IMG/VR virus record: IMGVR_UViG_3300021379_000808 | Coordinates: 1-50,602 of that record | Source of the DNA: a virus | Taxonomy: Duplodnaviria > Caudoviricetes | Reading direction: 5' to 3' (one strand) | DNA length: 50,602 nucleotides | Shown here: positions 26,015 to 47,752 of the stretch, in pieces | How the letters are laid out: every line of letters begins with the position of its first letter | Position numbering within the stretch: the first letter of the stretch is position 1 | Made by a program: the position numbers and the translations under genes | The notes under the pieces: model-generated | Told to the model about the DNA's origin: nothing | The model's input: the letters and a program-made list of their open reading frames with translations, nothing else | The model's database searches: none

Positions 26015-26295
26015 TTCACCTTATGAGACCAATACCGAGCGCTCAGCTTGCTAGGGTTAGAGTCCTGAGCATTGTGCCGGGCGTAGTAGCTTTTCCGACG
26101 CGCCTTATCCTTGGCCGTCTTTGGATTCTTGCCAGCGCCTTTGACCCCCTGTTGCCCAAAACGGATCGTCTTGACCTGATCGCCTTCCTTCGCGACCACG
26201 ACGTGTGACTTGGTTGGGTGATTGGGTGTGCGCTTTGGCTTGTTAACGCCAGACACGCCTGCGCGCTCAAGCAGACCTTTGATGTCTCTTGCCAT
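26008..26295 (-). CDS. Basic hypothetical phage protein, first late gene
   Basis: NKPKRTP.HPTKSH.V.AK.G...IRFGQQG...SARYWS..VKW; start MARD. Confidence 0.8.
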   Translation of the reverse strand: MARDIKGLLERAGVSGVNKPKRTPNHPTKSHVVVAKEGDQVKTIRFGQQGVKGAGKNPKTAKDKARRKSYYARHNAQDSNPSKLSARYWSHKVKW

Positions 26296-26306
26296 TTCCG
26301 CAACCC

Positions 26307-26333
26307 AAAAAAAAGCCCCGACTCGCGGGGCAA
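26307..26333 (-). terminator. Rho-independent terminator just upstream of the late operon (tR'-like)
   Basis: GCCCCG-CGAGT-CGGGGC followed by T8. Confidence 0.85.
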
Positions 26334-26392
26334 ACAAACTAAGAGGAGTGTTTCAAAAAAACCTGACGGGACGCTGGACGCAATTACCGCCA
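26307..26392 (-). ncRNA. Candidate terminated leader sRNA with anti-RBS seed AAACACUCCUCUUAGUUU
   Basis: Seed is complementary to RBS regions at 26714, 26971, 27513 and 34300-34311 and ends in a terminator; the 5' end is inferred. Confidence 0.55.
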
Positions 26393-26398
26393 GACCCG

Positions 26399-26427
26399 AT
26401 TGTCAACCTTTTAGGTTCTGGAATCAA
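26399..26427 (-). promoter_or_regulatory. Candidate late promoter (pR'-like)
   Basis: TTGATT-17bp-GACAAT; an overlapping TTGACA lacks a well-spaced -10. Confidence 0.4.
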
Positions 26428-26466
26428 CCGATTTAAGACCCACATAAATATTTATTTCTGAAGTGC

Positions 26467-26495
26467 TTGACACAGTAGCGCTACTCGATTACGGT
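26467..26495 (+). promoter_or_regulatory. Sigma70-type promoter of the early accessory operon
   Basis: TTGACA-17bp-TACGGT with an AT-rich upstream element. Confidence 0.7.
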
Positions 26496-26504
26496 TACAC
26501 CTAT

Positions 26505-26519
26505 CAACCAATTTGGTTG
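26505..26519. promoter_or_regulatory. Candidate repressor operator
   Basis: Palindrome CAACCA-ATT-TGGTTG just after the promoter, similar to 34342-34354. Confidence 0.5.
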
Positions 26520-26653
26520 GCTGGCTACGAGGAGCCCAGACCCAAACCCTGCGGGAGACAACCCACCAAACCGGCGACCACTGAGTCAACCAGTGAGAGA
26601 CGACACCAAACGAGCACGATGAGCACCACCACCGGAGACGGCGTGGGAACATA

Positions 26654-26705
26654 GCGTCAACACCTAATGCGAGGTGTTCTGATGATGGCCAGCAGGCCGA
26701 AACGC
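26654..26705 (+). ncRNA. Hammerhead ribozyme, type III
   Basis: GCGU-C^ stem I AACACCU/AGGUGUU, CUGAUGA-U, stem II GGCC/GGCC, GAA-ACGC; predicted cleavage after 26658. Confidence 0.85.
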
Positions 26706-26725
26706 AAAACAACGGAGTGTTACCA

Positions 26726-26911
26726 ATGCAGACCTTTGTATGCAAGGGTCGAGCGGGTAAGTGGTCCTACGGTTACCTTGCCGAGCCCGGCAAGCGAAAC
26801 GTGTGGGTGTACACCAACGGTGAGGTCACATACCGACCGCTTGGTGGAAACAACTTGATGGCCGCTTCAAGCGAAGCCACCACGTTGCACCGCAACTCGC
26901 TCGAGTCCTGA
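26726..26911 (+). CDS. Small hypothetical early protein (61 aa)
   Basis: GGAGTGTT RBS before ATG 26726. Confidence 0.65.
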   Translation: MQTFVCKGRAGKWSYGYLAEPGKRNVWVYTNGEVTYRPLGGNNLMAASSEATTLHRNSLES

Positions 26912-26982
26912 ATTAGATTCGGAGTCTGACCCACTTGGCAACAGAACGGGTCTCCCCTTTTAAAACAACTGGAGTGTTCAAT

Positions 26983-27429
26983 ATGACTACAAAAACATTG
27001 AAGCAAATCAACGCAGAACTCGCAGAGACCTCAGCCCAGCTCGAAGCTTTGGCGGATGTCCTGAGAGAAGCTAAGCAACACGTAGCTGACAAGACCCGGG
27101 AGGTCAGAGAGCTGGAGCGTTCAAGAACCGAGACGGCAGAGCGTGAACGGCGCAACTGGGTGAATCGCAACCGCTCGAAGGCCAAGCGATTAGCGGCCAA
27201 GTACGGTATCGAGATCGAGGACGAGTCGATCAGAGACTACGATGGATATGACCTGCGCCACTGGGTAGGTCAGCCAGACTGGCTTGAAGGTGACGACCCG
27301 CTCACAGATGGTCACTTCAGTCACTGCTGGAGCGACACTGTTTGGCTTGTCGAGTTTTACGCCAAGCATCACCCATCTCACCCAGATCACGAGAACCGTG
27401 AGCACAGGGTTCATAGCCCTCACTGCTAA
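26983..27429 (+). CDS. Hypothetical early protein with N-terminal coiled coil
   Basis: GGAGTGTT RBS before ATG 26983. Confidence 0.8.
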   Translation: MTTKTLKQINAELAETSAQLEALADVLREAKQHVADKTREVRELERSRTETAERERRNWVNRNRSKAKRLAAKYGIEIEDESIRDYDGYDLRHWVGQPDWLEGDDPLTDGHFSHCWSDTVWLVEFYAKHHPSHPDHENREHRVHSPHC

Positions 27430-27430
27430 A

Positions 27431-27490
27431 CCCGTCTGACGATGGCTGGAGGGATACCAGCCGAAACGCCTCCGGGCGTCACGGGAATCC
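27431..27490 (+). ncRNA. Hammerhead ribozyme, type I
   Basis: Stem I CCCGU/ACGGG, CUGACGA-U, stem II GGCUGG/CCAGCC, GAA, stem III ACGCC/GGCGU, GUC^ at 27480; loop II GGAU can pair with AUCC 27487-27490. Confidence 0.9.
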
Positions 27491-27522
27491 ACCCGACAAC
27501 ATACAAAAATTTGGAGTGTTTT

Positions 27523-28383
27523 ATGACTAAGAAAAAAGTTGATGCCTATCAGGTAATCACGGACAAAGTAATCGCGATGCTAGAGACTCACGGGTCAGGC
27601 TGGACTAAGCCTTGGTCTGACAGCCTCGCAGGATCGCCTGTAAGCCTTTCCACCGGCAACCCCTATCGAGGTATCAACCGACTGCTACTCGGCCTTGAGG
27701 GACGTTCTGATGCGCGCTGGGGCACATACAAGGCTTGGTCAGAGAAGGGCGGTCAGGTTCGTAAGGGCGAGAAGGGTACTGCGGTTATCTTCTTTAAGCC
27801 CTTAGAGATTCGAGGTGATGACGGTGAGGTCGAGAAGAAGATCCCCTTTGCCCGTATATACAATGTATTCAATGCCGAGCAAGTTGACGGTATCGAATTG
27901 ATCCAACCTGAAGAGCTGACCCCCATAGAGTTAGATCAGCGTTGCGAGGATTTCATTGCCGAGACTGCCGCGCAAATCCGATTTGGTGGTGACTCTGCGT
28001 TCTACTCCCCGGTTGTCGATTACATCGGTATGCCGAGACCAGAGGCCTTTGAGTCTACTGCCGGTTACTACGGCGTCCTACTGCACGAGCTCACTCACTG
28101 GACTGGTCACTCTACCCGGTGCGACCGCAAGATCCTCAATAGCTTTGGTAACGAGGACTATGCGTTCGAGGAGCTGGTTGCCGAGCTAGGCGCCACCTTC
28201 CTTTGTGCCGATTTAGGTATCGAAATAGAGCCCCGCGAGGATCATGCACAGTATATCGCAAGCTGGCTCAAAGCGCTACGAAACGACAAGAAATTGATCG
28301 TTAAAGCGGCCAAGCAAGCCCAGCTCGCAAGCGAGTTCTTGCACGGCCTCCAAACAGAAAATCAACTAGCAGAGGCCGCATAA
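27523..28383 (+). CDS. ardC: ArdC-like antirestriction protein (ssDNA-binding domain plus zincin metallopeptidase)
   Basis: W.KPW, YRGIN.L.L, W.TY..W...GGQVRKGEKG, VFNAEQ, HELTHWTGH and YAFEELVAE motifs; true start 27523 after the RBS. Confidence 0.92.
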   Translation: MTKKKVDAYQVITDKVIAMLETHGSGWTKPWSDSLAGSPVSLSTGNPYRGINRLLLGLEGRSDARWGTYKAWSEKGGQVRKGEKGTAVIFFKPLEIRGDDGEVEKKIPFARIYNVFNAEQVDGIELIQPEELTPIELDQRCEDFIAETAAQIRFGGDSAFYSPVVDYIGMPRPEAFESTAGYYGVLLHELTHWTGHSTRCDRKILNSFGNEDYAFEELVAELGATFLCADLGIEIEPREDHAQYIASWLKALRNDKKLIVKAAKQAQLASEFLHGLQTENQLAEAA

Positions 28384-28389
28384 GCGGCC
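28374..28389 (+). repeat. Stop-codon hairpin GGCCGCATAAGCGGCC, copy 1
   Basis: Identical to 28703-28718. Confidence 0.8.
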
Positions 28390-28403
28390 CGAGGGACAAG
28401 TAT

Positions 28404-28712
28404 ATGCAACCAATGCAAAAAGAAATCGTTAAAAAAATCGAAGCCTATGAAGGTATGGACCCAGCTAACGTGAGCGTAGCTGACCTGATCGCATACCAAC
28501 TGAGACTTACAACCTTGGTAAGTCGATACAATGCCAAAAACCCAGAACTCCGCCCAGTCCGAATTATGTTCTGCGGTAGTGGCGGCTTGATTGTTCATCT
28601 CGAATACCAGTACCTGAAGGTCTCACTGGAGCGGGTCAATGGGCGCCTCGACTGGCCCGATTCGCGTGATGTTTTGCAGGATTGGTACAACGACTACGAA
28701 CTGGCCGCATAA
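28404..28712 (+). CDS. Hypothetical early protein
   Basis: GAGG RBS; ends in NDYELAA. Confidence 0.75.
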   Translation: MQPMQKEIVKKIEAYEGMDPANVSVADLIAYQLRLTTLVSRYNAKNPELRPVRIMFCGSGGLIVHLEYQYLKVSLERVNGRLDWPDSRDVLQDWYNDYELAA

Positions 28713-28718
28713 GCGGCC
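28703..28718 (+). repeat. Stop-codon hairpin GGCCGCATAAGCGGCC, copy 2
   Basis: Identical to 28374-28389; followed by TTT. Confidence 0.8.
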
Positions 28719-28737
28719 TTTAACTGAGGAGAGAAAA

Positions 28738-29268
28738 ATGTCTAAGATCATCTACAAAGAAATCCAAGTCCACTGGTGTATGGCTCGTTGCTGGGTTGTG
28801 CGAGGAGTGCCATTTGAGGGTATGCACCAAGTACTCGATACCCTGCCAACTCAAAGTCTAGCCATAGACATCGCAAAGCTTCACGCCTTTGGATCTGACC
28901 AGCTACCCCGCAAGGCATTGCAGGTCAGGGTTTTTAAGAAAAGTCACGGGCTCAAACAAATCATATCGCCCCCTGAAGATCTAAGCGAAAAAGTAAGCTC
29001 GCATGAGGAGCTTGTAATGCGCCTAGCGCGAGAATACTGCGAGCGCAGATCTTTCCCTTTCGACATACCGAGCGTTGGCACAACTATCGGAGCGATGGAG
29101 TTGGAGAAGCCGGTGAGTTGGTGGGGATCTGCTCACGATGTCTACGAGTGGGCTCTCCGCCTGCGCGACGAGATCATCGAGATCCGCAACTATATGGCCA
29201 GTCAAGGGCGCGGCCTTCACGACGAGCCTGTCGATAGACAGACAGACTATGTGGGGGGTGCGTTATGA
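28738..29268 (+). CDS. Hypothetical protein
   Basis: GAGGAG RBS before ATG 28738. Confidence 0.75.
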   Translation: MSKIIYKEIQVHWCMARCWVVRGVPFEGMHQVLDTLPTQSLAIDIAKLHAFGSDQLPRKALQVRVFKKSHGLKQIISPPEDLSEKVSSHEELVMRLAREYCERRSFPFDIPSVGTTIGAMELEKPVSWWGSAHDVYEWALRLRDEIIEIRNYMASQGRGLHDEPVDRQTDYVGGAL

Positions 29269-29390
29269 GCTACCTATGGTTCGGTCTGTCTCTAACCATT
29301 CTTCTCACCGTGGGGTCAGTATTACTGGCCCTTTTGCTTGCAGAAGAGCGTTACATCGTACACCTAATGTATGGAAGGAAAAGAAAATGA
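29265..29390 (+). CDS. Small membrane peptide (41 aa), not in the ORF track
   Basis: ATGA overlaps at both ends; hydrophobic WFGLSLTILLTVGSVLLALLLA. Confidence 0.6.
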   Translation: MSYLWFGLSLTILLTVGSVLLALLLAEERYIVHLMYGRKRK

Positions 29391-29635
29391 ATAAAGTCGG
29401 ATATCTTCGTACTAACAAAGCCCCCATCTGGGGGCGCATATGCCGCAGTGCATACCACAACTGCCCCGATGAAGATTGGGGTGAGGTCATCGTTGCCGCG
29501 ATGAACCGGGGGATACTAGACCCCGAAGCTGTCTACTGGTGCGACATCGTTGAGTTCAATGAGGCCGCATCAGAGTACCCGGGGACAGTGAGCGAGTTTC
29601 TTGACTCACTGCCTGCTCCGGGGCGGCTGTCATGA
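29387..29635 (+). CDS. Hypothetical protein
   Basis: MNKVGYL start; ATGA coupling. Confidence 0.7.
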   Translation: MNKVGYLRTNKAPIWGRICRSAYHNCPDEDWGEVIVAAMNRGILDPEAVYWCDIVEFNEAASEYPGTVSEFLDSLPAPGRLS

Positions 29636-29802
29636 CCATCTCAGCCAAGGAGCGCATCGAGACACTCCTGCGAGGGGGCTACCGTCCAGACGAAGTGGCC
29701 TCAATCATCGAGGTAGAGCGAGAGCAATGGAAGCTCAACGAGTTCGATATCGAGGATATGCAGGAGATGGTTAAGCGCATCAAGGAGAAGTTAGACCTAT
29801 GA
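29632..29802 (+). CDS. Small hypothetical protein (56 aa), not in the ORF track
   Basis: MTISAKERIETLLRGG...; ATGA coupling on both sides. Confidence 0.65.
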   Translation: MTISAKERIETLLRGGYRPDEVASIIEVEREQWKLNEFDIEDMQEMVKRIKEKLDL

Positions 29803-29876
29803 GCTTTTATCAGCTAGCAAAAGCCATCCTTTGGGTGGCTCTCATCATAACCGCCTATTCGTTAGTGGAGGGATAA
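29799..29876 (+). CDS. Putative 25-aa membrane peptide
   Basis: GGAG RBS, ATGA overlap, AILWVALIITAYSLV. Confidence 0.45.
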   Translation: MSFYQLAKAILWVALIITAYSLVEG

Positions 29877-29877
29877 A

Positions 29878-30039
29878 ATGGACGCAATCGTTTACCTAGT
29901 GCTTTACCGGGGGCAGGGCTCCGGCGATACCTACAAGCACTGCTGTTATAACTGGAGTGAAGCAGAGGAGACTTTGCAGGAGCTCCAGCAGTCAGAACCA
30001 GATCGCGAGTGGTACATCTGCGAAAAGGATGTCTCGTGA
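29878..30039 (+). CDS. Small hypothetical protein (53 aa)
   Basis: GGAGG RBS; GTGA overlap with the next gene. Confidence 0.65.
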   Translation: MDAIVYLVLYRGQGSGDTYKHCCYNWSEAEETLQELQQSEPDREWYICEKDVS

Positions 30040-30215
30040 AACTGTCACCAAGCCAAGTCAAAGAGGCATCCGAACTAGAGTCCAAGGGCGTACAGCTCTG
30101 GGCTCTGGCTCAGATGTTCAGCGTTCACTACGACACGATGCGGAGATACCTTCGCAACTACCGAACTTATGGGGATTCAATGTTCACCCCGTACCCAAAA
30201 GAAATCGAGGAGTAA
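30036..30215 (+). CDS. Small HTH DNA-binding protein
   Basis: G.QLWALAQMFSVHYDTMRRYL HTH pattern; GTG start. Confidence 0.65.
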   Translation: MKLSPSQVKEASELESKGVQLWALAQMFSVHYDTMRRYLRNYRTYGDSMFTPYPKEIEE

Positions 30216-30218
30216 GTC

Positions 30219-30377
30219 ATGCAATCAGTTCAACAACTGCTTAACCGAATGGAAGCGGAGATGGCCGCACTAGATCTTGAGTATCAAGTTTACAAAGCGT
30301 CTTGCGCTTTTCACGAGGAGCCTATGGGATACATTGAGTGGAAGGCCGCAAAGTCAAAGGAGGAGGCCGATGAGTAA
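30219..30377 (+). CDS. Small hypothetical protein (52 aa)
   Basis: GAGGAG RBS before ATG 30219. Confidence 0.65.
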   Translation: MQSVQQLLNRMEAEMAALDLEYQVYKASCAFHEEPMGYIEWKAAKSKEEADE

Positions 30378-30642
30378 GTCAGAAGCCGCGAGAGCCTTGG
30401 CCGGTATGAGAAAGGTCCGAGAGCTTCACTGCATTGGTTGCGGGGAATCTTTCCACGCCGTCGATACCCGGGCGAAGTATTGCTCGAATCGTTGCCGCCA
30501 GAAGATGAAATACCAGCGTAAAGTTGCCGAGTATTTTGACAAGGAGTGCGCCGTTTGCGAGACCGTTATGTTCCTCAACGATAAGCGAGTGAAGTATTGC
30601 TCGCCTCGATGCCGCTCAATAGCCGCTGTCCTTCGGAAGTGA
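30370..30642 (+). CDS. Protein with two Cys4 Zn-finger repeats
   Basis: CxxC...KYCSxRCR twice; GGAGG RBS. Confidence 0.75.
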   Translation: MSKSEAARALAGMRKVRELHCIGCGESFHAVDTRAKYCSNRCRQKMKYQRKVAEYFDKECAVCETVMFLNDKRVKYCSPRCRSIAAVLRK

Positions 30643-30942
30643 ATCAAACTCCTTCCTAAATGCCTCAATCGCCATATCCCTCGCCCTGCGGGGGATTTTT
30701 TTTGCCCTGTCGATATAGATAAGCCTCAGCGTTTTCCTTAATGCCGGATGCAGTTTGTTGACGGCGGTTCCGGTCATCTCAACAACCATATCGCGCTCAG
30801 TCATTACCCCGGTGCTTCGATAGCCGGACTGATAATCTTTGAATGTTGGTGATACCGAAGGGTAGTCTAGCTGGCTGACCTCTCCCCTCTCAGCGTCCCC
30901 CCAGTCTTTAAGCAAAGTCATTGCCGCATATTTTGGCATCAT
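30616..30942 (-). CDS. Putative Q-like late antiterminator (start uncertain)
   Basis: Last gene of the nin region; L..WG...L.YP.VSP.F pattern and sigma-region-4-like helices. Confidence 0.5.
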   Translation of the reverse strand: MMPKYAAMTLLKDWGDAERGEVSQLDYPSVSPTFKDYQSGYRSTGVMTERDMVVEMTGTAVNKLHPALRKTLRLIYIDRAKKIPRRARDMAIEAFRKEFDSLPKDSGY

Positions 30943-38093: not shown

Positions 38094-38325
38094 ATGGCTT
38101 TATGTAACAGGCACACCTAAGACAACCTTCAGGGGATGGAAGAAGAAGCTCGTTAAAGGACAGCACTATTTCGTTAATGGTCGATCAACTTACGTTGACG
38201 CCAAGGAGATGGACAATTGGCTAAGGGCATCAGGCGCTGGAGAAACAAGTGGCAGTTACGAGCCACAGTTGACGGTAAAGCGCACACCCTCACGCTCGAC
38301 TACCCAGATACTCAAGCTGGTCTGA
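38074..38325 (+). CDS. xis: Excisionase-like protein
   Basis: Small basic wHTH-like protein (G.HY...GR.TYVD...MDNW) upstream of and overlapping int. Confidence 0.65.
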   Translation: MLIHLDKWLYVTGTPKTTFRGWKKKLVKGQHYFVNGRSTYVDAKEMDNWLRASGAGETSGSYEPQLTVKRTPSRSTTQILKLV

Positions 38326-39260
38326 GGAAGGCCGTAAAGGCTAGGAAAGTCTGGCTTGCTCAACTCAAGTCTGGCTGTGTCGAGGATGTGCCTCAGTTTG
38401 GTGTGCTTGCTCAAGAGTACCTACGCCAATCTGACCTAAAGCACTCCACGTATCACGTATACCGTAGAGCGTTAAACCAGTTTTGGATGCCGCATCTAGC
38501 TACGGTTGGCGTGGACCGCATTAAGCCGAGTGTGGTCCGCGCCATACTTAAATCCCACGATGTAACCTCAAAGACAAAACGCAATGCGCTCATACCTTTA
38601 CGCAAGGTGTTCGAGCTGGCTATCGAGGAAGACTACATCGACACTAACCCGGTAGATTCTGTGCGGGTTAGGCGCCACCAGAAGCCCCCGGTTATTCGAT
38701 TCACGCCAGAAGAAAAGGCAAAGATACTCAAGCGCCTTGATGGGGACGGCTACCTGTTCTATCTGATTGCCTTCGAGACCGGGATGAGAACCGGGGAGAT
38801 ACTGGGCCTCAAGTGGGAGGACCACACCGGGGACAATATCCATCTATCAAGATCCATTGTGCGCGGCAGGATTGGATCTCTAAAGACTTACAACGCTAGG
38901 TCAGTGTTCGTATCGCCCAAACTGCGGAAGGTGCTTACAAGTCATCCTGATCGCTTCAAGGGAGGGTTTATATTCGTCACTGCTAACGGCGATTATTGCC
39001 GAGACGATGACAGGTTCAGAAGGGCTTGGCACAAGGCATTAAAGGGAGCGCGAATAACCTATCGAAGGCCATACACTTGCAGGCATACTAGAGCATCAGA
39101 GATGCTGATGGCTGGGGTGGAGCCAGCCTTTGCGGCAAGACAGCTAGGCCATTCAATACAGATGTTCTTAACGGTATACGCAGAGTGGATAGATGGCGTT
39201 AAGGATGTACAGCAAAGAGAGATACTTAAAGCCATAGGGGGCAATGATGCGAGTAGTTAG
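38217..39260 (+). CDS. int: Tyrosine integrase
   Basis: TGMRTGE, K, YTCRHT, LGHS and VYA catalytic motifs; N-terminal arm-binding-like domain; TTG start after AGGAG. Confidence 0.92.
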   Translation: MAKGIRRWRNKWQLRATVDGKAHTLTLDYPDTQAGLRKAVKARKVWLAQLKSGCVEDVPQFGVLAQEYLRQSDLKHSTYHVYRRALNQFWMPHLATVGVDRIKPSVVRAILKSHDVTSKTKRNALIPLRKVFELAIEEDYIDTNPVDSVRVRRHQKPPVIRFTPEEKAKILKRLDGDGYLFYLIAFETGMRTGEILGLKWEDHTGDNIHLSRSIVRGRIGSLKTYNARSVFVSPKLRKVLTSHPDRFKGGFIFVTANGDYCRDDDRFRRAWHKALKGARITYRRPYTCRHTRASEMLMAGVEPAFAARQLGHSIQMFLTVYAEWIDGVKDVQQREILKAIGGNDASS

Positions 39261-39634: not shown

Positions 39635-42600
39635 TTAGCCAGCGCGGTCCTGCATGAATTCATCGTACCGCTTGTTGAAGCGATCAACGATATCGTCCTT
39701 GCTTTCCCTTAGCGCTTCGAGCTGTTGCTCTCTATCGGCAGGCGTTAGGTCGTCTCGATCCCGTATTCTCATCTCACGCTCGCGGATACGACGCAATCGC
39801 TTATAGACGTTATTGGCTTTTGGATACAGCGTTCGTATTCCATTAAAGCCTTCGTCGCTTGCCTTTCTTGCATTAGAGTCAGGCGCGTCATTGTATTCCT
39901 TGCGAGCGTTGATAATCTCCTGTCGCCTTTCGTAGAAGGTGTCGATGTCTCCGTAGTCGGACTGATCCTTACCAACAAGAACCCGAGCAAACGGCACATT
40001 AGCGATCTCCAACTGCCTGCCAGTAACGGGCCTAAATATAGAGTCGCCTGTACCTGTGGCCGTTCTCAATAAACCGCCGCCTGCGTACTCGATAATCTGC
40101 TGTAGAGTCTCTGGGCTAACGTCTGTAGAAATGCCCATAAGCTCGCCAGATCTGTACTCAGATCCGCCGCCAATAACGTCATTAAGGAACTGAGCCACCT
40201 GAACATAAGGCTCTTTGGTTGAAGGCCAGTACAAGTAAGCATCCGCCTTCTGTGCTCCGCCGGGGAAGTTTTCTGGGTAAATCTTCTCACCGAAGTAGTT
40301 AGTGTTTACTGCAAGCTCAGTGACCGGAAGCACAATGCTTGGGCTTATCGTTAGTGCCGCCTGAGCCGCCGCATTTTCCGCCCTGTGCAGACTGAACGGG
40401 GAGAACGACGTTGTGAAGCTAGACACCAAATCGCCAAGAATATTATCCCTTCTGCGCTGTGATCCTTTGAGCGCACCTTCCACCGAGTCGCCAAGATTCC
40501 AGAAGAAGTTGTAACCGTAGGGCAAGGGTAGCTTGTAGTAATCCCCGCCAGATCCGGGCTTCATAATGATGAGATTTCTTTCTCGTATGCCTGCGGGGAT
40601 CTTGTCCCAGAAAGCTTCGCCATCATCATCCTCACCACCCACTTCTCTCATTAGAGAAGCAAACCCAGCTCCGCCAGCAACAATGCCGCCAGCTATCTTC
40701 TGGGCTAGGTTTAGATTTCTCTGCACCTGAATGTTTCCTTGGCTGTTGACCTGAAGAGGGCTCAGTGTCCGCAAGAACTGAGTGGTTCCCTGAACTGCCG
40801 CGTTAAAGAACATATATAGCGAATTAACGAATGTTCCTATCTCGCCCTTGCGGTTAAAGTTCACCGTCATATTCTTGGCTAAGGACGCCGCCTGCTTGCG
40901 AGCAACGCCTGCCTTCCTAGCCTCGATATAGGCCGATAGTCTGACGCCGTTTTCTACTGCGCTGTTGTATTTCTCAACCAGCTCAGCAATCTTAACGCCA
41001 GCCTTCATCAAGTCATTCTTGGTGCCGGGGCCAGCTCTGCCTAGCTTCTTCTCTAGATCTGCGGCAATTGTGTCAACATCTGGAGAGTCAAAGTAACCAG
41101 TCTTTGCGCCGTCGTTAAGAAACTCTTGGTAGTATCGACGATACTCAGTAGCTTCTGGGTCAGAGTCGTCATTAACGGCATCTTGCTTATTGGATGATCT
41201 GATTGCGGCAATAGCCCTTGGCGTACCTGAGACAACTTTACCAGCAATCTGATTACCGTCTAACTTCCCGCCATCCATAGTGGCCTCTGCCATTAGATTC
41301 AGCGCCGCCGCCTGAATATCACGGGCGAAGTTCGTGACCACAAACTGAGGGTTGTATGAGGTATTAACAGATGCCAAGAACCGGGTCATCCCAGCAACAA
41401 CCTTGGTTACTGCGCTCAATCGCTCAGGACCAACATTCTGCATTGCATTAAGCAGTCGCTGATCCTTGACCTTGATGTAATGGACAATGCCATCCCGCTT
41501 GACTGCGTAGTATTTGTCTGACCCTGCCATATTGACCGGACCCTCTCTAACACTTCCGTTACGGAACTGCTCCTCAGTGTCCGGGTTTGCGTCAGTAAAG
41601 ACTTCCCACATATCAGGATCTGGGTTGCCCTCAACAAGATTAAGGAAGGTCTGGCCGACCTCGTTCTTCCTGTTGCGGATGGTCTTCTCTGTGAGATCCG
41701 CAATAACCTGAGATGTTGGGCTCTTCGCTTTGGATCTTCGGCCTAGTGCGCGGCGCGACTCTTTGCCTCGTATGTCAAAGCCCCTGCCTGTTCTAATTCT
41801 ATTGCCGTTAGAATCAACCTCGTCGTCAGCGAATCCCCGCAATGGGATGTAGTTTTCATACATACTCTCCCAAGAACTAACCTCCTCATCCGAGGCTAAG
41901 CCGCCAGACTTAATAAGATCTCGCGTAAGCTGAGTCATTGCGTATACTTGATTGGCAAGTTGGTTGTAGTCTGCCAGCTTCCCGGATCTCTGTACGCGCT
42001 GTATAACCTCTGCCGCTTCAGCGTTAGTCATACCTGAGCCACCGTCAGGTAGCTTGTCATTGATTGCCGCAATCTTACGGTTACGCTCTGGTGCGTGACG
42101 AGCCATCAGGTACTCGTCTAGATCGGCAACGCTAATGCCAGTCTTCTCAAGTAGCTCGACAAACGGACGAATCAGACGAACCTCTAGCTGTCGCAAGTCT
42201 TCTTCGGTCTTACCGTAAAAAGCCTCTTCCGCTAGGTAAGCGTCCTCGTCAAAGTCCAGCTTGCGCTCTTGCGTTTCCTCAATGAACTGCTGAGTGCGCT
42301 TGAGGCCGACCATTTTGTCTTGGAAGGTGCGGATGAATTTATCAGCAATAGTCTCTTCAGGCGGTCGCTTAGGGTAGATTCTCGCCGAGTCCCGCTGGAA
42401 CATTGGCAATCCTTCCTCTGTAACCTTCTGCTTAAACTCATCAGAGATAGGTGCGGCCCAGCCACGAATGCCTGCATCCTGCATGAGCTTCATTCTGAGT
42501 TTTTCTTCAGCTTGCTTTCTTGCGACCTCTACACCTTTGTCGGTGTAAATGTCCATAAAATCAATAGCAAGATAGTCGCTATTAGAAGGGAAAGTGACTG

Positions 42601-45600
42601 AGAAAGTGATCCTGTTGTTGTCGGAGTATTGGTCTCTGTATTTAATCTCTGCTTCGCCTGCGACCTTTAAAGCGTTCTCGTAAGCGGCAGTCGCATCAAG
42701 ACCCTGAACATCCACAGGGTAAGGCTTAACGCCGAGAAGCTTTCCTATCGCGCTAACGTGCTTCTTGTCATAAATCTGCTCGTAGAATCGGCCCCAGCGA
42801 TTGTTCAGCTGAGCGGCGCTTGAAATCATCAAGGCATCCTTGCCCTCCTCCACTGCGGTGATAAGCATCCGCTTGAGAGCAAGCTCCGCATAACGATCTT
42901 CAGTAAAGGGTACGTTTGGTGGAGCGCTTTGTGAATTGGCAAGCCTTCTTCTCGCGTCATCACGAGCCTTAGATTTCTTTCTGTTTTCGACCTCTAGACT
43001 TGCAAGTTCCCGCAGAAACCTATCAAGGTCTGGCTCAAGATCAGTAACCTCTTTAATGCTTCCTAGGTACGTTGCCGATGAAGAGTAGCTAATGTCCTTC
43101 CCCTGAAGCTCATCAGCAAAAGCCTGCCTAGCAATGCGTAAAAAATTATTGTAACTAGGAGTTGGATCTAAAATTCCCGGAGCATCCATTCTGCTCACCC
43201 CAAACAGATCCCCAACAAGCTTGGACACATCAGGGCTCAATAGCAATGCTTTTGCATTCTCCGCTACTGTGTCAATTCTCATTTGCGTACTGGCCATATC
43301 CAAGTCGATTTCATTAAGGGCTTTTTCGTCCCTATCAACCCTAGCCTGATCTCTTGGCCCTCCAGCTCTGCGGATATCACTCTGCCAATCAGACTGCATC
43401 TCCTCGATCATGAGGACATTGCCTAGCGCATTACGTCTATCGGTAGCGAGGACATTAAAAAGTGCGTTTTGCCCAAAGTGGCTTGAGTAGTATTGGCCCC
43501 ACTTGTTGTCAATGGTTGTAACAAACTCCCGGTACTGATCCCAATTCTCTTCTTTGACATCACTCAAGTAGTCTAGAAACTGGACATCATCTCCAGTGGC
43601 TACATACCCATACTCGTTAAGGTAGTTTTGAACCTGAACCTTGGCTTCGTCTAGGTCATAAACAATATCAAAATCACCCGTTTCTCCTCTCTCTGGGGTT
43701 ATTTGAATGCGCCAGCCCATATCATCGCTTCCTGAAATTTGGGCGTATCTGATCCCATCAACATCGGTAAGCAGATCAACGGTGGTGTATGGATCTGAGT
43801 TTATGTAGTCCTCTCGCGCAGTAACCCAAGCAACTTCGTCAATTTCGTTTTCAAACTCTGCCGCCAATTCAGGGTAAACTGTTTTTGCTCCAAGCTCCTT
43901 CACAAAAGAATAAACACCAGCCTCAGCGAACGACCCCCTGCTTAGGTATTCTTCTTGGGCTCTCGCGGTCACATCCTCATCGAATACGCCGCTTGATAAA
44001 AAGTCATAAACCTTTTGCTGATTTTCAAAAATAAAGTTGCTAATTACATCGCCAGCTCGACCCGCAAAGTCGCCCTGCTTTATCTCGTACTGGATGTCAT
44101 CCCAGATATACTCGTAGTATTCCTCGCTGTCTTGTATTTCAGGCTCACTGTACTCTAGCCCATCTTCGCTAATCTCAAATCCAGCCTGAGTTGTGGACTC
44201 AACGTCCTCCTCTAACTGTGGCGCCTCATCCCGCAAGAACTCAATCACCTCATCGCGAGTAAAACGACGGCTGGGGTCTTCGGTTAGGAACTGCTCAATC
44301 TCAGTGTACTGAGCCTCATCTTTTTTGATGCCCTTCCCTTTGAGGAAAGAAAAGATCTGGTCTCCACGAACGCTGGCGTCTGGGTTTTTCTTTGAAGGCT
44401 TAAAGATTTTATCGCCTTGGTCAATGATGACCTGCTCAGTGTTGGAGTACAGCTTTAGAGGGGTTTGCTTTGCTCTGGTGCGCTCGCCCATAATAAATGA
44501 TGGACGACCCTCTTGAGCGTTAGTCTGGTTGTTTAAAAAATTGTTCCGAGCTCTTTTTGCTACTAACGAAATATCACTTGCTCGCATACGCGATAGCTTC
44601 AAGAATGTGTTGTTGCGGAACCACTCGCGGATAGCACCAATAGCCTCGCGGGTACGTTGCTGTAACTTCTTAGAACCCTGCTGTCCTGTGTAAGCAAGCA
44701 TCTCGTTCACAAGAACTGCGTTGCGAGTATCTTGGTCTAAGCTGGAACCTTTCATTCCGCTAATATAAGGGCGCACATTAGCCTCAATGCCAAGCTCTCT
44801 AGCCAGCTTATCAAAGCCTTTCTGTCCACCCATTGCGGTCCACATACGATTCAGCGCTTTGTTGACGCCCTGATCTCGGTACATATCCATCACGCCGCCG
44901 TGAGTGCCTTCGTGTAGAAGCGCCTCTTCAACCTGCGATTCAGTCGCGAGCTTACCCTTGACGAGGTATACTGTCCCTCTATGGTAAACCGCGCTAATGT
45001 CCGCTCCATCGGAGCCCTGATCTCTTGCCGCTTGCTGGATTTCTTCCGGAAGCTCCGCAAAAGAAGAGCGCACGTCTACTCGATTACGGGCATCCCCGTC
45101 CTGACCGACGACCCTATCGAGGACAGAATTGAATTGTTCATCGTTGATGACGGGTCTTCGAGTGGCTCCTCTCTGGAATGAAGTGTCTAAACCTCCGTCT
45201 TCCTGAATGCCTCCAATCTCTGCATCACTACCTGTAGCTTGTCTCTCGCCGAAAGCTTCAGCTCCGGTCTGATCTCCAATGGGCGGCTGTAAAGTTGCTC
45301 TTCCTGATCCCTCGTTAAACGATTCAACATCTCGCTCTTCGGATTCGACAAGGCTTGCTTCTTGGGTTGGCTCTCTTTGCGATCCATAGCTGGCATCAAA
45401 AGACTCCTGATAATATTGGTCAACGAATGCTATTTCGTCGTCAGTTAATGGGCCGAACTCATCCTGAAGCTCAATAAGAGTTCGTGATATTTCTTCCTGC
45501 TCAACTTCTAAGCTAGGAATATCCGCTCTGCTATCGCCAACGAATACGCGATCATTAGACTGGATGGCCGTTGTGAAAAGATCCAAGACTTCGTTGGCTG

Positions 45601-47752
45601 TTGGGCGCTCTGGGAAGAAGCCATTTTCCGCAAGCTTCTCTCCCATATCATCAAAGCTCAGGCCATTCCTTCTTACGGGTCTTGCCCGTCCTGAGTAGCC
45701 CCTAAATGATTCTGGGTCTATACCCTGAGTAATCGCCTCGTCAGTTTGTATGCCGCCAAGTCGAGCGATTGCCGTTAGAACGTCAGTGTCTTGTGCGCTA
45801 GTTGATCGTGGGGGCACTTCCTGAGCTTGCTCAATGCGATCCTCAATCTCGATTAAGCGCGACTCCATCTCTGGTGCAGATGCCGCCTCATATGATTCTC
45901 GGAGTCCCTGCGTTGTGTCGCGAATCTCAGGCTCGGGCTGTGCCGCTTGATTAGTTTGGTCAATAAAGTTATTAACCGACTCAGGGTTTGCCTGTCTACG
46001 CTCGCGTCTGAATCCAGCAAGCGCAAAGCGCTCTGTGTTTGGATCTTGGAATACTTCCCAGTTGAACCCCGGCTCCGCCTTCTGACGGCTCTTCATTGCC
46101 GCGTCAGCGCCCTTTCTGGTAGCAAAGCCATCACCCCTAGATCCTTGGTAAATCGTGTCTGGAGCGCCTTCTATGGGCTCCTGATAGATGACGTTATCTT
46201 GGGTTAGAAGTGGGCGACGTTGAGTCCTAACTACTGGACCTTGCTCGACGTATGAGGCATCGAAATTAACGTCTGTGTCTGCGGTTATGACCGGCCCTTC
46301 CAAGGGCTCACTTGGATCTCGAACAGGAGGCTGACGCAAGAACTCCTGAGACATCTCAGTGCCGACAATCGCGTTAGCTCGCTCAATGAGTCTGGCTCGC
46401 AAGCCCTCATCTGCTGTGCCTTGTGCGCGGTCATATATAGCTTGTGCGTTGCGGAGGCGAGTGGCTCGCTCTGGCTGGTTTACCCTATCGGCGAAAAGTA
46501 TCTCTTCTGTTAAGTCAAAGGGTAACTGGGGAACTTCTTGCTGGGGCTGGAAAGGCGCTGGCGTAACAATCGGTTGGAAGGGTGTTGGCTGTAGCGTGTC
46601 CTGATCGAACTGATTAGCAAGCTCCGGTAGCTGTATTGTGGAAGGAGCTGGCTCCTCGATATTCATACGCTCGCGAAGAGCCGAAAGGTCTGTATTAGCA
46701 AAGCCTCCAGATGCGGCAGTCGCGGCATCGAGATTGTCGCCGCCGTTGGCTACTGCATCTGCTCTAGCGGCTTCTGCGTTTTCGCTGGCCTCCTGCATTG
46801 GAGAGGAGAGCCCAGCAACACCACCGCCCAGTATGCCTCCACCAAGCGCGCCAAGACCCGCCGCCTGACCGACGCCCTCAAAAGTTTCCCGCGTTGGGTC
46901 AATAGGCTGTACGGCAATGTTTCCTGCAATCTGACCGCCGCCTTCTTCAAGCGTCTCTTGCAGTGACTCGCTACCGGCGCCCTTCAGAGCGCGAGAGAAA
47001 AATCCATCGCCTTTAACGCCGCCTCTGGCTAGGCTTCTTTCGATAGTGTTCGGCAAAACACCAGCAGTAACGCCAGATATAACTCCAGATATGCTGGCCG
47101 CTTTGCGCGAGGCATCAAGGGCGATCTCATTCTTTGCTTCTTCTCTACCCACTTGGTCTGATAAAGCAATGAAGTCTGCGTTTTGATTCCAGATATCATC
47201 CGGCAATGCCTTGAGGTCGTCGAACACACTCCCGCCAACATCGCCAGCTTGCAGTGCGCCGCCAGTAACCACACCGGCTCCAGCGCCAACTCTTGCAGAT
47301 TTCGTTAGAAGAGATGCCCCCTTCGCAACAGCACCTCCGGGTACTGCCATTGGAGCCTGCTCAAGAACAAAGTTACCAAGTAGATCAAGATCGCTAATAG
47401 TTCCCCAAACAGCCTCGCCTGCCTTTGCAAGCTGACCATCAGCAGAGTCAATGCGAGCTTGAAGATCGGCCTGCTTCTGCAAAAGCTCGTCAGTCTTAAA
47501 TTGCTCGTAAAACTCACGTCCACGCTCCGCTTGGCGAGTGGCCATATTGTCCATATCGCCAGATACAAGACCATACAGACTACCCACAGAACCAAGGAGA
47601 TTGTTTGCGCCTATACCGAATGATGCAAAAATATTGCTTTTAAAGGGCTCGGGCTCAGGCTGAGCTTCAAATTCGTCAAAGAACCCGCCATAAGGGCTGT
47701 TGCTAGATGGTCCGTCGAACTCATCAAAAAAACCGCCGTACTTGGCCATCAA
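39635..47752 (-). CDS. Giant polyvalent (ejected) protein with HEXXH metallopeptidase and LPD38-like C-terminus
   Basis: 2705 aa; LLHEGTHGG, IEEMQSDW, AKNMTVNFNRKG...LYMFFNAAVQG and KLPLPYG motifs. Confidence 0.85.
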   Translation of the reverse strand: MMAKYGGFFDEFDGPSSNSPYGGFFDEFEAQPEPEPFKSNIFASFGIGANNLLGSVGSLYGLVSGDMDNMATRQAERGREFYEQFKTDELLQKQADLQARIDSADGQLAKAGEAVWGTISDLDLLGNFVLEQAPMAVPGGAVAKGASLLTKSARVGAGAGVVTGGALQAGDVGGSVFDDLKALPDDIWNQNADFIALSDQVGREEAKNEIALDASRKAASISGVISGVTAGVLPNTIERSLARGGVKGDGFFSRALKGAGSESLQETLEEGGGQIAGNIAVQPIDPTRETFEGVGQAAGLGALGGGILGGGVAGLSSPMQEASENAEAARADAVANGGDNLDAATAASGGFANTDLSALRERMNIEEPAPSTIQLPELANQFDQDTLQPTPFQPIVTPAPFQPQQEVPQLPFDLTEEILFADRVNQPERATRLRNAQAIYDRAQGTADEGLRARLIERANAIVGTEMSQEFLRQPPVRDPSEPLEGPVITADTDVNFDASYVEQGPVVRTQRRPLLTQDNVIYQEPIEGAPDTIYQGSRGDGFATRKGADAAMKSRQKAEPGFNWEVFQDPNTERFALAGFRRERRQANPESVNNFIDQTNQAAQPEPEIRDTTQGLRESYEAASAPEMESRLIEIEDRIEQAQEVPPRSTSAQDTDVLTAIARLGGIQTDEAITQGIDPESFRGYSGRARPVRRNGLSFDDMGEKLAENGFFPERPTANEVLDLFTTAIQSNDRVFVGDSRADIPSLEVEQEEISRTLIELQDEFGPLTDDEIAFVDQYYQESFDASYGSQREPTQEASLVESEERDVESFNEGSGRATLQPPIGDQTGAEAFGERQATGSDAEIGGIQEDGGLDTSFQRGATRRPVINDEQFNSVLDRVVGQDGDARNRVDVRSSFAELPEEIQQAARDQGSDGADISAVYHRGTVYLVKGKLATESQVEEALLHEGTHGGVMDMYRDQGVNKALNRMWTAMGGQKGFDKLARELGIEANVRPYISGMKGSSLDQDTRNAVLVNEMLAYTGQQGSKKLQQRTREAIGAIREWFRNNTFLKLSRMRASDISLVAKRARNNFLNNQTNAQEGRPSFIMGERTRAKQTPLKLYSNTEQVIIDQGDKIFKPSKKNPDASVRGDQIFSFLKGKGIKKDEAQYTEIEQFLTEDPSRRFTRDEVIEFLRDEAPQLEEDVESTTQAGFEISEDGLEYSEPEIQDSEEYYEYIWDDIQYEIKQGDFAGRAGDVISNFIFENQQKVYDFLSSGVFDEDVTARAQEEYLSRGSFAEAGVYSFVKELGAKTVYPELAAEFENEIDEVAWVTAREDYINSDPYTTVDLLTDVDGIRYAQISGSDDMGWRIQITPERGETGDFDIVYDLDEAKVQVQNYLNEYGYVATGDDVQFLDYLSDVKEENWDQYREFVTTIDNKWGQYYSSHFGQNALFNVLATDRRNALGNVLMIEEMQSDWQSDIRRAGGPRDQARVDRDEKALNEIDLDMASTQMRIDTVAENAKALLLSPDVSKLVGDLFGVSRMDAPGILDPTPSYNNFLRIARQAFADELQGKDISYSSSATYLGSIKEVTDLEPDLDRFLRELASLEVENRKKSKARDDARRRLANSQSAPPNVPFTEDRYAELALKRMLITAVEEGKDALMISSAAQLNNRWGRFYEQIYDKKHVSAIGKLLGVKPYPVDVQGLDATAAYENALKVAGEAEIKYRDQYSDNNRITFSVTFPSNSDYLAIDFMDIYTDKGVEVARKQAEEKLRMKLMQDAGIRGWAAPISDEFKQKVTEEGLPMFQRDSARIYPKRPPEETIADKFIRTFQDKMVGLKRTQQFIEETQERKLDFDEDAYLAEEAFYGKTEEDLRQLEVRLIRPFVELLEKTGISVADLDEYLMARHAPERNRKIAAINDKLPDGGSGMTNAEAAEVIQRVQRSGKLADYNQLANQVYAMTQLTRDLIKSGGLASDEEVSSWESMYENYIPLRGFADDEVDSNGNRIRTGRGFDIRGKESRRALGRRSKAKSPTSQVIADLTEKTIRNRKNEVGQTFLNLVEGNPDPDMWEVFTDANPDTEEQFRNGSVREGPVNMAGSDKYYAVKRDGIVHYIKVKDQRLLNAMQNVGPERLSAVTKVVAGMTRFLASVNTSYNPQFVVTNFARDIQAAALNLMAEATMDGGKLDGNQIAGKVVSGTPRAIAAIRSSNKQDAVNDDSDPEATEYRRYYQEFLNDGAKTGYFDSPDVDTIAADLEKKLGRAGPGTKNDLMKAGVKIAELVEKYNSAVENGVRLSAYIEARKAGVARKQAASLAKNMTVNFNRKGEIGTFVNSLYMFFNAAVQGTTQFLRTLSPLQVNSQGNIQVQRNLNLAQKIAGGIVAGGAGFASLMREVGGEDDDGEAFWDKIPAGIRERNLIIMKPGSGGDYYKLPLPYGYNFFWNLGDSVEGALKGSQRRRDNILGDLVSSFTTSFSPFSLHRAENAAAQAALTISPSIVLPVTELAVNTNYFGEKIYPENFPGGAQKADAYLYWPSTKEPYVQVAQFLNDVIGGGSEYRSGELMGISTDVSPETLQQIIEYAGGGLLRTATGTGDSIFRPVTGRQLEIANVPFARVLVGKDQSDYGDIDTFYERRQEIINARKEYNDAPDSNARKASDEGFNGIRTLYPKANNVYKRLRRIREREMRIRDRDDLTPADREQQLEALRESKDDIVDRFNKRYDEFMQDRAG

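Follow-up and report, generated by a model that had tools for sequence, protein, structure and literature searches.

As read from its sequence, the stretch at 27431–27485 (+ strand) of this phage genome is a complete type I hammerhead ribozyme, and the motif and its 3′ tail essentially constitute the intergenic region between a 148-aa open reading frame (ORF) and the anti-restriction gene ardC. It represents a phage subfamily whose sequences combine a stem I of 5 bp with a 7-nt pseudoknot-forming loop II and usually have one U inserted after A9. We consider it probable that the motif is a functional hammerhead that processes the RNA between cistrons and insulates the neighbouring cassettes from one another. 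We infer both its cleavage in vivo and the effects of that cleavage on stability and translation.

The window, by which we mean the entire stretch of DNA analysed, spans all 50,602 bp of IMG/VR virus record IMGVR_UViG_3300021379_000808, which is complete. Structural and lysis genes occupy the minus strand up to ~26337. An operon of small ORFs begins at ~26700 and extends rightward as far as a terminator-like hairpin, which likely closes it. A promoter scan of 26200–30800 returned no sigma-70-like sites. The operon's small genes are accessory ones; the phage is of temperate type and encodes an integrase at 38217–39260. On the minus strand, a 2705-aa ORF (39635–47752) encodes a polyvalent protein with an LPD38 ‘large polyvalent protein’ domain; a polyvalent-type metallopeptidase domain is also present in ArdC. 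Comparing 26400–28400 by blastn with a phage GenBank collection gave a single 141-nt, unrelated-looking match within ardC. A pattern scan of cellular genomes gave 12 loci, mostly in Clostridia MAGs and two in Acidobacteria; as these are not necessarily close kin, they do not point to a host.

Two hammerheads in one operon

The type I motif is built from helices of 5 bp (stem I), 6 bp (stem II) and 5 bp (stem III), with stems II and III closed and stem I open, which is the type I topology (Table 1). Its core is closed by the pairs G27444–C27462 (10.1–11.1) and U27435–A27481 (1.1–2.1). The hammerhead consensus is found throughout: the CUGANGA core, the GAA, the A15.1–U16.1 pair (A27466–U27479, included in the 5 bp of stem III) and a C at H17 (C27480).

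Table 1. Coordinates in the window of the two hammerheads and of the features around them
Feature	Position	Strand	Basis and remarks
Type III hammerhead	26654–26705	+	Descriptor, direct reading; kept in related locus L002
61-aa ORF	26726–26911	+	Within 26706–26960, a segment absent from relatives
148-aa ORF, cargo between the hammerheads	26983–27429	+	
Type I stem I, 5′ strand CCCGU	27431–27435	+	Direct reading, descriptor; pairs covary in relatives
Type I core C3–A9, CUGACGA	27436–27442	+	Direct reading; near-invariant in 55 relatives, N7 alone varies
Extra U between A9 and G10.1	27443	+	Direct reading
Stem-loop II, GGCUGG (27444–27449) / CCAGCC (27457–27462), 7-nt loop AGGGAUA (27450–27456)	27444–27462	+	
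Type I core G12 A13 A14 (GAA)	27463–27465	+	Invariant in relatives
Stem-loop III, ACGCC (27466–27470) / GGCGU (27475–27479), loop UCCG	27466–27479	+	Direct reading, descriptor, covariation
Predicted scissile bond, C17/A1.1	27480–27481	+	Position from the hammerhead consensus
Type I stem I, 3′ strand ACGGG; 5′ start of the predicted 5′-OH ardC leader	27481–27485	+	
Tail AUCC, pairing with loop II GGAU (27452–27455) as a pseudoknot	27487–27490	+	Covariation
ardC Shine-Dalgarno GGAG, inside the recurring GGAGTGTT	27513–27516	+	
ardC, 286 aa, ArdcN and MPTase-PolyVal domains, PHROG anti-restriction protein	27523–28383	+	Pfam, PHROG
Terminator-like hairpin and T-run	30676–30696	+	Consensus scan only

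An earlier note on this DNA had placed a type I hammerhead upstream of ardC, filling the gap between the preceding stop codon and the ribosome binding site, with loop II paired to the tail and a 42-nt leader left by cleavage. These proposals are borne out. The core is canonical and all three stems covary; the TAA stop of the 148-aa ORF (27427–27429) sits 1 nt before stem I, and the GGAG of ardC follows 27 nt after the motif's end; the GGAU/AUCC pairing is a covarying pseudoknot in 55 sequences; and a cut after C27480 would leave a leader of exactly 42 nt, 27481–27522. Left unstated at that point was the extra U at 27443, a feature that recurs after A9 in 54 of the 65 unique type I sequences of the family. 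By direct reading, the motif is followed by no T-run.

The insertion of one nucleotide between A9 and G10.1 has precedents. In 2001, De la Pena and Flores reportedly described one in the hammerhead of CChMVd. Hammerheads of Penelope-like elements are also reported to carry an insertion at this position (PMC4209133). Unlike these two cases, which come from a eukaryotic viroid and a retroelement, the inserted base is here a U and its setting is a phage operon.

The type I motif is not the only ribozyme of the operon. A type III motif is positioned in the operon's leader; read directly from the sequence, its core and its helices (7 bp in stem I and 4 bp each in stems II and III) are of canonical form. 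It too has an extra U after A9 (26686), and its predicted cleavage site follows C26658. The Rfam model RF00008 (Hammerhead_3) scored 27.8 bits against 26651–26708 with a local E-value of 1.5e-4, short of its gathering score of 48.5. Stem III has 6 bp in the closest relative and 4 bp here, because the window is without 3 nt after 26705. At four related loci (L021, L026, L027 and L084), the type III loop I AUAGCA is complementary over 4 nt to a loop II …UGCU, a match in sequence that suggests a loop I/loop II pseudoknot among the type III relatives; the loops of the window's own motif have UGC/GCA complementarity only.

The two hammerheads bracket the ORFs at 26726–26911 and 26983–27429, neither of which has a match in Pfam or PHROGs. 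Wherever a relative of the 148-aa ORF was found (7 of 7 loci), at least one hammerhead lies nearby. The segment with the 61-aa ORF is flanked by a repeated leader, AAAACAAC followed by an optional T and GGAGTGTT, at 26698–26721 and 26960–26978. Four copies of GGAGTGTT occur in the window, three of them ahead of starts in the rightward operon.

Covariation, chance expectation and database models

Related loci were collected by protein homology, 19 through ArdC and 7 through the 148-aa ORF, and 80 further loci came from a pattern search through viral contigs. In total, 94 type I instances were obtained, 65 of them unique, and 55 were aligned. The protein-retrieved loci hold many type I and type III hammerheads, all on the gene strand, and relatives bear from one to three hammerheads per locus. 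A covariance model gave 16 matches in the 26 related loci, and all 16 are on the gene strand.

In the 55-sequence alignment, 95.5% of the pair cells are paired, compared with 77.5% in shuffled alignments and 31–42% in controls with slid partners, and 18 of 23 pairs vary on both sides; none of 500 shuffles matched the observed values, which are to be read knowing that stems I–III, though not the pseudoknot, were partly selected by the search pattern and scanner. All three stems show compensatory changes among these phage sequences, with 5 of the 6 pairs of stem II altered on both sides. The 14 sequences that come from loci found by protein homology only tell the same story: 88.9% of pair cells are paired versus 73.6% when shuffled, and 13 of 21 pairs change on both sides, which no shuffle out of 500 equalled.

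The helix between loop II and the tail covaries at all five of its pairs in the 55 sequences. Its central pair is AU in 23 sequences, UA in 20, GC in 7 and CG in 4, and is unpaired in 1; matched loop and tail sequences include GGAU/AUCC, GGUU/AACC, GGGC/GCCC and AGCU/AGCU. On this comparative evidence, both the hammerhead assignment and the loop II/tail pseudoknot are well supported. The window's own pseudoknot has 4 Watson–Crick pairs only. For a type II test construct, Perreault et al. report that kobs fell ~20-fold when the pseudoknot was reduced from 6 bp to 4 bp (PMC3088659). The hammerhead of PDB entry 8YDC, a 2024 structure (PMC11300833), likewise combines a hammerhead core with a pseudoknot; we rejected it as the family of our motif because its pseudoknot replaces helix II, which is intact here.

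Stem II has variants among the relatives. In three type I motifs (L002:2406–2478, L006:3960–4035 and L007:5019–5094), a G10.1–C11.1 pair and a 1–2-nt bulge replace the extra U; the bulged nucleotide in the first of these, which is without the extra U, is an A. In L027:1886–1959, stem II apparently opens with a U–U mismatch.

The frequency expected by chance was estimated with a descriptor that requires all three helices, allows type I or type III topology and 0 or 1 inserted nucleotide, and is applied to both strands. It matches the 50.6-kb window twice, both times on the + strand, with cleavage sites 822 nt apart. In 1335 first-order Markov genomes of equal size it found 54 matches, or 0.04 per genome, and ~4 of the 54 had at least 15 stem base pairs; the real sites have 16 and 15. 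The loose pattern CUGANGA...GAAA...UH is uninformative (7 matches, 12.7 expected).

When the 55-nt motif is folded in isolation, the hammerhead secondary structure is the minimum free energy fold (-24.3 kcal/mol). Nearest-neighbour folding of 27400–27530 favours other pairings of stem I (-40.9 versus -25.4 kcal/mol), and stems II and III persist. One alternative fold in the longer context employs the same GGAU/AUCC pairing as the pseudoknot.

The earlier note had proposed an Infernal search with the Rfam hammerhead models as a check, and this search did not report the type I motif. Rfam 15 at gathering gave no match in the whole window, and at E ≤ 10 it gave no hammerhead match in 27380–27540; RF00163 (Hammerhead_1, gathering threshold 34 bits), run at E ≤ 10 on the record, also left the motif unmatched. 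The features of RF00163 are all present (an open stem I, closed stems II and III, CUGANGA, GAAA and UH). Unlike that family, our motif has the extra U after A9, and its tertiary contact is made by Watson–Crick pairing between loop II and the 3′ tail instead of a loop/bulge contact in an extended stem I; the model's score is not reached. At E ≤ 1, none of the 11 type I motifs that the scanner detected in eight related loci was reported either, and the same search returned just two sub-threshold type III matches and a tRNA. We regard the miss as a limit of the models and not as counter-evidence; the motif is a phage hammerhead with comparative support that standard Rfam annotation overlooks. The tRNA gene (56 bits) lies at L027:4241–4311, in a related phage locus.

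Placement between genes

The ORF call begins at 27442, inside the hammerhead core, its start codon being made of A9, the extra U and G10.1, and the earlier suspicion that this start is wrong is very probably right. Translated from the ATG at 27523, the protein has its ArdcN Pfam domain from residue 7, and tblastn matches at the 19 related loci begin at residues 1–7 of the same protein. We therefore correct the start of ardC to ATG 27523.

The further proposal that the ribozyme is a device of the ardC leader did not survive comparison. According to the covariance model, a type I hammerhead lies directly upstream of ardC at 2 of the 19 related ArdC loci (L002 and L017) and directly downstream at 2 (L003 and L016); it is found elsewhere within 2.5 kb at 5 and is absent from 10. 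Judged by this distribution, the type I hammerhead is a general intercistronic element of such operons and is not specific to ardC.

A survey of 60 type I instances from related loci (L003–L107) shows how tightly the element is packed between its neighbours. In 51 of the 60, an open frame of 50 codons or more ends within 120 nt on the upstream side, and in 39 of these 51 its stop codon falls 0–4 nt ahead of stem I. On the other side, a Shine-Dalgarno sequence and the start codon of an ORF of 40 aa or more are located 33–80 nt past the predicted cleavage site in 45 of the 60. A ribosome terminating at the abutting stop codon would cover stem I and the core, and this geometry suggests that translation of the upstream ORF may be coupled to cleavage.

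Intercistronic processing and its alternatives

The reading that we favour is one of intercistronic processing. As the polycistronic RNA emerges, the type I motif would fold and cut itself after C27480. Stem-loops II and III, which form the body of the ribozyme, would stay on the upstream mRNA and give it a structured 3′ end that terminates in a 2′,3′-cyclic phosphate, and the ardC mRNA would receive a defined 42-nt 5′-OH leader regardless of which gene lies upstream. The type III motif, by its predicted cut after 26658 in the 5′ leader of the operon, would have its ribozyme body remain with the downstream RNA, at the 5′ end. Between them, the two cuts would free the RNA of the two cargo ORFs from its neighbours, and the net effect would be to process the message between cistrons and to insulate neighbouring cassettes.

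This arrangement has been known from prophages since 2011, and our subfamily member joins a known class (Perreault et al.; PMC3088659). These authors describe multiple hammerheads that flank prophage genes and propose that they process mRNA into gene-length pieces; in their account, three prophage arrays self-cleaved during in vitro transcription, and a triple array around ardA of A. tumefaciens was cleaved in E. coli (PMC3088659). Like those arrays, the present one has at least two coding-strand hammerheads of mixed type that bracket variable genes or short blocks, belongs to an integrase-bearing phage element, uses pseudoknot tertiary contacts, and has an anti-restriction gene directly downstream, here ardC where A. 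tumefaciens and Legionella have ardA. Unlike the A. tumefaciens array around ardA, the gene is ardC and the pair consists of a type III and a type I motif. The self-cleavage of polycistronic phage RNA into gene-length pieces as it is transcribed, as proposed by Perreault et al. (PMC3088659), is the best-supported reading. Because hammerheads flanking phage accessory and anti-restriction genes were published in 2011, the find is in itself an ordinary one.

Engineered insulators offer a second comparison. RiboJ is derived from a plant satellite ribozyme. In E. coli, hammerheads of the RiboJ type placed before the ribosome binding site are reported to remove upstream RNA and to normalise the 5′ UTR (PMC7536230). 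The type I motif, lying ahead of the ardC ribosome binding site, would by analogy trim upstream RNA in the same way. The engineered RiboJ differs in that a hairpin has been added to its downstream RNA; the natural motif, of type I, would leave a leader without structure.

A different consequence of the same cut would be to stabilise the ardC message: its 5′-OH would evade the RNase E decay that a 5′-monophosphate stimulates, and the anti-restriction protein would be made faster or for longer. We regard this as a possible benefit, though an unlikely one. The predicted product does have its 5′-OH 42 nt ahead of the ardC start, and the type I topology would give this RNA an unstructured 5′ end, which counts against this reading. 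In Bacillus, according to work reportedly published by Collins in 2007, cleavage by the glmS ribozyme leaves a 5′-OH that targets the mRNA to RNase J1 for degradation. The argument depends on the host. Models of RiboJ-type insulators have uncleaved mRNA decaying twice as fast in E. coli (PMC7536230), and in three Legionella strains a hammerhead is reported to be directly followed by ardA (PMC3088659). Against a role tied to the anti-restriction gene, the element is found directly upstream of ardC at only 2 of 19 loci, and it often lies downstream of it or by unrelated genes.

In a further reading, the hammerhead and its leader have been selected mainly as a module of the cassette boundary, serving as an exchange marker, a shared recombination sequence and a means of context-independent expression; we think this doubtful. 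The closest relative, G001, has an ArdC that is 96% identical. Its DNA homology includes the type III motif and the ribosome binding site and ends at 26721, 16 nt past that motif; it is missing over 26722–27428 and restarts at 27429, 2 nt ahead of the type I motif. Both ribozymes are kept in this comparison, and the cargo between them is unrelated. Metagenome contigs join 26705 directly to 26961 in 4 of 4 runs, all from one study, and there 26706–26960 with its 61-aa ORF is missing. Two runs of the same single study have a 475-nt insertion at 27427|27429, and several distinct sequences adjoin 27427/27429 in the contigs.

The wider family gives a similar picture. Among 13 family pairs with at least 100 nt of one-sided ungapped homology, the break lies no more than 15 nt from the motif in 8 and within 30–40 nt of it in 3, and blastn HSP ends accumulate at the motif edges (36–79 per bin region, where ~9 is typical); the pair counts are small, the sequences are redundant, and the four runs come from one study. 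Moreover, the same comparison with relatives places breakpoints at the ends of genes that have no ribozyme (for example ~28390 and ~28703), and junctions at gene ends are the norm among phages, which counts against a special role for the hammerhead. The edges of both hammerheads coincide with indel or replacement junctions in the population, a coincidence that fits exchange at these boundaries and does not prove it.

If exchange were the main role, the conserved ribozyme sequence would act as a recombination linker between phages, and self-cleavage would free each acquired cassette and the gene that follows it from the expression of their neighbours. The choice between type III and type I would then set which neighbour receives the protective ribozyme body. 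We offer only tentatively, as more doubtful than not, the view that the hammerheads are ‘plug-and-play’ junctions, in which stop codon, ribozyme, pseudoknot tail and ribosome binding site delimit exchangeable cassettes. The tight and recurrent packing of stop codon, ribozyme and ribosome binding site, taken together with the coincidence of edges and junctions, makes the purpose of phage hammerheads testable as either insulation or cassette exchange.

Intercistronic processing by two ribozymes would also permit a circular product, in which 26659–27480 is excised by both cuts and ligated, or a product in which the flanks are spliced; we judge either to be very improbable. The excised ends, a 5′-OH and a 2′,3′-cyclic phosphate, would be substrates for RtcB-type ligases. 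GCGU-C precedes both predicted cleavage sites, and therefore the type III motif could regain its stem III at the junction of a circle. GCGUC is, however, the family's commonest stem III sequence, and the match between sites is not seen in other lineages. Perreault et al. sought spliced or circular products of the arrays they describe and report that none was detected (PMC3088659).

A chance motif, or an intergenic structure without catalysis such as a stabiliser hairpin or a terminator, would agree with the silence of Rfam and with the extra U in the core region, yet it can hardly be the explanation where two sites are found against 0.04 expected per genome, where the invariant core is surrounded by covarying stems that a plain hairpin would not need, and where the T-run of a terminator is missing after the motif.

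Further downstream, a palindromic stop-codon hairpin is directly repeated at the end of ardC (28376–28391) and at the end of a 102-aa ORF (28705–28720). The sequence at 28391–28702 is absent from relatives. Because of this absence and the flanking repeat, the 102-aa ORF (28404–28712) looks like an indel cassette.
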